Source of the DNA: a virus
Lineage: Duplodnaviria; Heunggongvirae; Uroviricota; Caudoviricetes
Virus record (IMG/VR): IMGVR_UViG_2639763151_000002
Length of the DNA stretch: 17,168 nucleotides
Strand: one strand, 5' to 3'
In this document: piece by piece, positions 16,822 to 17,168 of the stretch
Layout of the letters: the number at the start of each line of letters is the position of its first letter
How positions within the stretch are numbered: position 1 is the first letter of the stretch
Made by a program: the position numbers and the translations under genes
The notes under the pieces: model-generated
What the model was told of the DNA's origin: nothing
The model's database searches: none
The model's input: only the letters and a program-made list of their open reading frames with translations

Positions 16822-17168
16822 ACCGGTAGGCGATCTGGTCGTTGATTTAAGTCTGGATGCGGCCAGATTTGACGAGCAGATGGCCAGAGTCAGGCGTCAT
16901 TTTTCCGGTACGGAAAGTGATGCGAAAAAAACAGCGGCAGTCGTTGAACAGTCGCTGAGCCGACAGGCGCTGGCTGCACAGAAAGCGGGGATTTCCGTCG
17001 CGGTGCGCTGGCGTATGCCTGGTATCAGGGTAACTCAACCCTGTCCGATTTCAACAAAACGCTGGTCCTTTCCGGTAATCAGTCGGGTCTGACGGCAGAT
17101 CGTATGCTGGTCCTGTCCAGAGCCGGGCAGGCGGCAGGGCTGACGTTTAACCAGACCAGCGAGTCACT
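16814..17168 (+). pseudogene. H: tail tape-measure protein H, 5' part, with an apparent frame disruption near 17000; continues past the window end
   Basis: The first 63 codons match lambda gpH (MAEPVGDLVVDLSLDAARFDEQMARVRRHFSG...AGISV), then the frame gives unrelated sequence and stops at 17092. From about 17005 a different frame, with no start codon, encodes ALAYAWYQGNSTLSDFNKTLVLSGNQSGLTADRMLVLSRAGQAAGLTFNQTSES, matching a downstream part of lambda gpH. Confidence 0.5.

Follow-up and report, generated by a model that had tools for sequence, protein, structure and literature searches.

Tape-measure gene H of the lambdoid prophage described here lacks 208 bp of its 5' part and is, judged by its sequence, a disrupted gene and not a functional member of the gpH family. 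We regard the loss as a probable real deletion and, in that case, as an instance of ordinary prophage decay. In the window, i.e. the whole stretch of DNA that was analysed (17,168 nucleotides), nucleotide alignment with the intact H genes of E. coli 04-00955 and phage 21 revealed a single gap, exactly 208 bp long, at 17000/17001. Relative to lambda H, the same 208 bp are absent. Because 69 codons and 1 base are lost, the zero frame reads 30 nonsense codons and then stops. The first-pass annotation of this DNA had described H as frameshifted by an internal deletion, either in a defective prophage or through an assembly or sequencing error. Alignment and reading frame both support an internal out-of-frame loss, and defining it by nucleotide alignment of the H region, as had been suggested there, yielded the gap and the endpoints given above.

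Genomic context of the H gene

The window represents a late region of the phage 21/lambda type and comprises Q, the lysis genes, cos, Nu1, A, W, B, C, D, E, FI, FII, Z, U, V, G, T, and the start of H. A prophage in E. coli 04-00955 matches it collinearly over its whole length (100% coverage, 99.9% identity; 17,376 subject versus 17,168 query bases); this nearest complete relative is integrated at a tRNA-Arg gene (argU, the DLP12 site) next to intD. A base-by-base comparison of the two revealed 24 substitutions, all of them located between 9375 and 12400, while the other 14 kb are identical; besides the 208-bp gap, no indel was found in the 17 kb. The remaining late genes, i.e. Nu1, A, W, the portal and protease/scaffold genes, D, E, FI, FII, Z, U, V, G, and T, are full-length. 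The phage 21 genome begins, in the alignment, at approximately position 6085 of the window, which places cos there, upstream of Nu1 (6273).

The substituted block from 9375 to 12400 covers the 3' half of the portal gene, the protease/scaffold gene, and the spacers flanking D. The portal and protease proteins encoded in it match exactly variants that many other prophages share (3,488 and 383 collection blocks, respectively), and the block looks like a recombination patch acquired from another lambdoid prophage. In none of the 20 genomic contexts listed for these two proteins were the upstream genes of the window present.

The following features of the window outside H are referred to in the text:

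474-851: antiterminator gene Q
844-1419 and 1427-2455, minus strand: two genes of unknown function between Q and the holin gene, convergent to the late operon
2743-3069: holin gene of the lambda family
15983..16405, plus strand: tail assembly chaperone gene G, from the ORFs and the annotation of collinear relatives; intact
16381..16387, plus strand: G-T -1 slippery heptamer GGGAAAG (G GGA AAG), the canonical lambda sequence; intact
16387..16821, plus strand: tail assembly chaperone T frame, opening at 16387; intact and directly upstream of H

Since the slippery heptamer is intact, the chaperones G and G-T should still be made although their client H is broken. The two genes at 844-2455, which are also present in the 04-00955 prophage, occupy the position of stx in Stx phages. 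Their matches in PADLOC are PDC-M53A (E = 1e-31) and PDC-M53B (E = 2e-54), a candidate defence pair; they gave no Pfam family and fall into PHROGs of unknown function only. The pair may be a prophage-borne anti-phage moron. Lambdoid morons are also located on the minus strand between the lysis genes and cos, namely bor (4039-4332) and a DUF1398/YbcV gene within 4624-5157. No hits were obtained when the window was scanned for Rfam families and tRNAs.

The 208-bp gap in gene H

Gene H can be recognised by its position and by the retained parts of its product. Its start at 16814 is located immediately 3' of the G/G-T chaperone genes with their -1 slippery site, the two retained pieces share 62 of 62 and 54 of 55 residues with gpH, and PHROG tape-measure families match residues 1-63. 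A single continuous ORF of about 853 codons is not found, the frame being broken at 17000/17001. The ORF list and the translation instead contain an ORF of 92 amino acids on the plus strand (16814..17092), which starts with the ATG at 16814 and ends with the TGA at 17090-17092, so that the turn of the H frame into nonsense and its stop at 17092 are as the first-pass annotation had reported them. The elements of the broken gene are:

16800..16807, plus strand: Shine-Dalgarno sequence of H, AGGAGGAG, read from the sequence; intact and identical to phage 21 and E. coli 04-00955
16814..16999, plus strand: authentic 5' end of H, codons 1-62; DNA 100% identical to nt 1-186 of the 04-00955 H gene
17000..17001, plus strand: deletion junction, blunt, with 208 bp (H nt 188-395) gone, from the alignment and exact comparison
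17000..17092, plus strand: frameshifted tail of the ORF, 30 nonsense codons (AVRWRMPGIRVTQPCPISTKRWSFPVISRV) plus the TGA at 17090-17092, from the translation
17002..17168, plus strand: continuation of H in the -1 frame, codons 133-187 plus 2 nt, running off the window end, from the translation and comparison with gpH
17104..17106, plus strand: first candidate restart ATG in the H frame, corresponding to Met166 of gpH, from a frame scan

The H genes of E. coli 04-00955 (NZ_CP035498.1), phage 21 (OL657228), and lambda (NC_001416) served as references. Window positions 16814-17000 correspond to H nt 1-187 and positions 17001-17168 to H nt 396-563. The missing nucleotides 188-395 extend from the second position of codon 63 to the second position of codon 132. 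In the gap alignment both flanks of the junction are 100% identical to the references, and with flanks so identical chance is, on this comparison, no explanation for the gap. At the protein level, residues 1-62 are all identical to those of lambda gpH (62/62), residues 63-132 (lambda numbering, NC_001416) are lost, and residues 133-187 are read from 17002-17166, in the -1 frame with respect to the start codon, the only difference from lambda gpH among these 55 residues being the substitution A159S. The match of the H frame to lambda gpH, put at 63 codons in the first-pass annotation, is confirmed with 62 identical codons. The second frame with similarity to gpH exists in substance but covers residues 133-187 rather than about 135-190, and the estimate of about 70 missing codons was roughly right, the exact loss being 69 codons plus 1 nt. 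That this loss is not a multiple of three holds for the 208 nt now determined.

In intact H, Pfam predicts a TMP_2 domain (PF06791) at residues 54-256 and a Tape_meas_lam_C domain (PF09718) at residues 627-701. The lost part lies inside TMP_2 and includes the hydrophobic stretch GGMIPMFRGLAGAITLPMVGATSLAVAT; in a Pfam scan the 92-aa product gave no family, and TMP_2 was not found in it. The window stops at H residue 187, the Tape_meas_lam_C domain and the tip-binding helix (residues 818-842) lying beyond it. A megablast search with positions 16700-17168 against phages and 5,426 complete E. coli genomes returned thousands of matches with 95-100% identity, and each match listed consists of two pieces, with 677 subject bases per 469 query bases.

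Anatomy of the junction

In the intact sequence the left breakpoint is located between CCGTCG and GGCAG and the right breakpoint between GGCGAC and CGGTG. Zero bases are common across the join, so that its placement is unambiguous and no microhomology is present at 17000/17001. The intact segment contains neither a direct repeat with a spacing of 208 bp nor an inverted repeat that would bring the endpoints together. Its DNA fold is no more stable than that of shuffled sequence (z = -1.0) and does not join the endpoints, whose complementarity is just 4 nt (GTCG/CGAC). Since the endpoints show no repeat or shared bases, neither slipped-strand deletion, for which a repeat of the right spacing is missing, nor collapse of a repeat by the assembler, for which a direct repeat at the endpoints is missing, accounts for the join. 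A hairpin-mediated deletion was likewise rejected in view of the unremarkable fold and the 4-nt complementarity.

Occurrence of the junction and of other broken H genes

The junction was searched for by megablast with a 52-nt query for which every 28-mer seed is forced across the join, and it was not found in 5,426 complete E. coli genomes, 50,697 phage records, and 72,556 plasmids (PLSDB). Searches with exact 30-mer and 22-mer patterns showed that it is also absent from IMG/VR, from the JGI metagenomes, and from the GTDB representative genomes, the last giving two chance 22-mer matches in unrelated MAGs with different flanks. The exact 92-aa product was not found among 153 billion gene positions, and an uninterrupted 700-nt 5' region of H is present in 24 of the 24 related loci fetched. 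The first-pass annotation had named close relatives that share the junction and have a functional, shorter H in frame as evidence that would speak against a broken gene; such relatives did not turn up, as no other sequence in the collections searched has the junction. A junction seen nowhere else is a private, probably recent lesion, or an artefact.

H genes broken at other sites are frequent. A protein search with the 92-aa ORF showed that public E. coli assemblies contain many N-terminal H ORFs cut short at 52-161 aa, several of them on contigs of 4-6 Mb, and H fragments of 65 and 161 aa occur in complete genomes; to judge from these ORFs, real breakage of H is common. The 161-aa class (P0003-P0016) has many members in E. 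coli assemblies, and the 65-aa class (P0086/P0088), found for example in APEC IMT5155, ends with ...GDFRRAV after a frameshift near codon 49. The PHROGs database holds families of H fragments, e.g. phrog_18471 with a profile length of 65. Three hits of the search (P0001, P0002, and P0103) have a frameshifted tail as in the window, reaching the same TGA:

L027 (ERZ28642889, P0001): H nt ~201-369 deleted, 169 nt, out of frame
L028 (ERZ28620252, P0002): 52-nt gap near H nt 337-388, with CGG microhomology, out of frame
L029 (ERZ28527153, P0103): H nt ~135-368 deleted, about 234 nt, in a diverged allele, out of frame

These are independent out-of-frame deletions within H nt ~135-395, and none of them shares the 17000/17001 junction. 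All three are singletons on short ENA metagenome contigs, and the record name of L029 gives a coverage of about 1.6x. The search with the 92-aa protein detects only deletions that end in this frame near this tail, so that detection bias accounts for at least part of their apparent clustering in H nt ~135-395.

Possibilities for rescue of the reading frame

The downstream H frame, which is the -1 frame, is open only from 16948. From this position onwards no ATG, GTG, or TTG occurs in the H frame before the ATG at 17104, in agreement with the first-pass observation that the head of this frame has no start codon. The ATG at 17104 sits 12 nt past the TGA, and no recognisable Shine-Dalgarno sequence was seen ahead of it.

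H function might be kept either by recoding or by termination and reinitiation at this ATG, the latter giving a tape measure without residues 1-165 and a shorter tail, but we consider both very improbable. The shift needed would indeed be -1, and the -1 frame is open from 16948. However, an X XXY YYZ heptamer is missing from the zero frame over 16948-17092, and the sole homopolymer run of 7, an A7 at 16925, is misplaced, as it precedes a stop in the -1 frame. Programmed recoding, be it -1 frameshifting or transcriptional slippage, was rejected for want of a slippery heptamer or long homopolymer in the overlap of the open frames. Reinitiation finds an in-frame ATG at a compatible spacing after the stop, and in the comparable broken contigs L027-L029 gene callers start a gene at the corresponding ATG; moreover, in-frame deletions in H give shorter but viable tails (PMC1796659). 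The missing Shine-Dalgarno sequence argues against this route, as does the predicted restart product, which would miss about half of the conserved TMP_2 domain (residues 54-256). The allele is conserved nowhere, so that there is no sign of selection for a rescued product. We give equally little credence to the wider idea that H nt ~135-395, the hydrophobic N-terminal segment, would be a recurrent deletion target in resident prophages, with the downstream part of H expressed by reinitiation at the ATG 12 nt past the new stop, as a split or N-truncated tape measure with some activity (shorter tails or a function beneficial to the host).

That the window carries a natural, shorter in-frame H allele, i.e. 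another length variant of the tape measure, is refuted by the sequence itself. In favour of it one can cite only the general fact that tape-measure length varies among phages; however, 208 nt equal 3 x 69 + 1, the zero frame stops 30 codons further on, and the 24 related loci all carry the full 700-nt region without a gap.

Real deletion or artefact

An artefact of assembly, library preparation, or sequencing is the competing explanation that deserves serious weight, and we regard it as possible, if rather doubtful. It might be a chimeric read, a template jump by the polymerase in a GC-rich segment, or a wrong join close to a contig end, H being multi-copy in many E. coli genomes; the true H would then be intact. 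The join is blunt and a singleton in every collection searched, and it is located 168 bp from the window end, as a chimeric join near a contig end would look. Both ends of the window lie inside genes, like those of draft-assembly contigs, most public contigs with this module measure 2-20 kb, so that assemblies often break here, and some single genomes contain the module, with its H gene, 2-3 times. All further out-of-frame deletions seen in H nt ~135-395 are on short metagenome contigs, the sole stated coverage being the low value of L029, and this pattern could point to an artefact-prone region.

On the other side, no repeat or shared k-mer links the endpoints, and a de Bruijn or overlap collapse cannot make such a join. 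The rest of the 17 kb is without an indel compared with a relative of 99.9% identity, so the assembly is not error-prone, and a chimeric junction would not win the consensus in an isolate sequenced at normal coverage. The proximity to the window end does not discriminate, since a contig break soon after the junction is also expected when one copy of a multi-copy gene has truly lost sequence; the distance of 168 nt from junction to end gave no consistent value for a k-mer size of the assembler. The high base rate of broken H genes favours a real deletion, which we consider the probable explanation, even though the sequence alone cannot separate the two.

Consequences for the prophage

As a real deletion, the gap would have arisen by an illegitimate event without homology at the junction, which removed 208 bp from the 5' part of H in this copy of the prophage. 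In view of the absence of any other visible lesion in the 17 kb and of a junction found in this sequence alone, the event would be a recent one, and it would represent one step of ordinary prophage decay. From the normal start, 62 authentic and 30 nonsense residues would be translated, and the remaining approximately 720 codons of H would lie in the -1 frame without a start of their own, so that presumably no full-length tape measure is made. In lambda, gpH is a trimer around which 32 rings of gpV assemble and whose C-terminus sits in the tip (PMC10721106), and tail length is proportional to the length of H (Katsura and Hendrix, as cited in PMC1796659). Given this role as a ruler (PMC10721106; PMC1796659), the frameshift at codon 63 should abolish tail assembly by the prophage's own gene. 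Polymerisation of the tail tube around the gpH trimer would be neither initiated nor measured, and the prophage alone would probably yield tail-less, non-infective heads. A defective prophage is characterised by an inactivating lesion in an essential gene, and such a lesion is present here if the sequence is correct.

The loss of infective particles concerns this prophage alone, and the element could still be transmissible. An H product supplied by another lambdoid prophage in the same cell, or an H gene recombined in from it, could rescue the defect. About 65% of the complete E. coli genomes contain at least one 5' region of a lambda-type H, with up to 5 per genome, and two or three late-gene modules, each with an H gene, occur within some individual genomes. 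Defective lambdoid prophages that reside in one cell are released in particles and undergo recombination among themselves, and they have been inferred to complement one another in morphogenesis (PMC2669165).

Should the deletion be real, the prophage makes no tails of its own and either depends on another lambdoid prophage for H or is on its way to a cryptic remnant; predictions that the element is inducible or can be transmitted with its cargo (bor and the upstream candidate defence pair) would be affected. An artefact would mark a mistake in the underlying assembly at this spot. In either case, what is known about tape-measure proteins or prophage decay stays the same. Both the gene and the type of prophage are well known.

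Comparison with known systems

The H gene of the window resembles those for gpH of lambda (NP_040595) and phage 21 (UMO75431) in its position after V, G, and T, its Shine-Dalgarno sequence, and its start codon. Residues 1-62 and 133-187 are 100% and 98% identical, respectively, to lambda gpH, and on either side of the junction the DNA is 99.8-100% identical to the H genes of phage 21 and E. coli 04-00955. It differs from the lambda and phage 21 genes in that H nt 188-395 are gone, the frame is broken, and the ORF comprises 92 aa instead of 853 aa. [quoted passage not shown] Those deletions are in frame and give viable phage with proportionally shorter tails, whereas the 208-bp deletion shifts the frame and is predicted to leave no ruler protein at all.

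With respect to its state, the prophage is comparable to those of E. coli O157 Sakai (Asadulghani et al. 2009, PMC2669165), which are also lambdoid and carry lesions in morphogenesis genes. In the Sakai strain, near-identical morphogenetic genes are common to co-resident prophages, and complementation or recombination between prophages has been inferred to restore particles (PMC2669165). Unlike the Sakai prophages, which have several lesions, the prophage described here shows one visible lesion in 17 kb.
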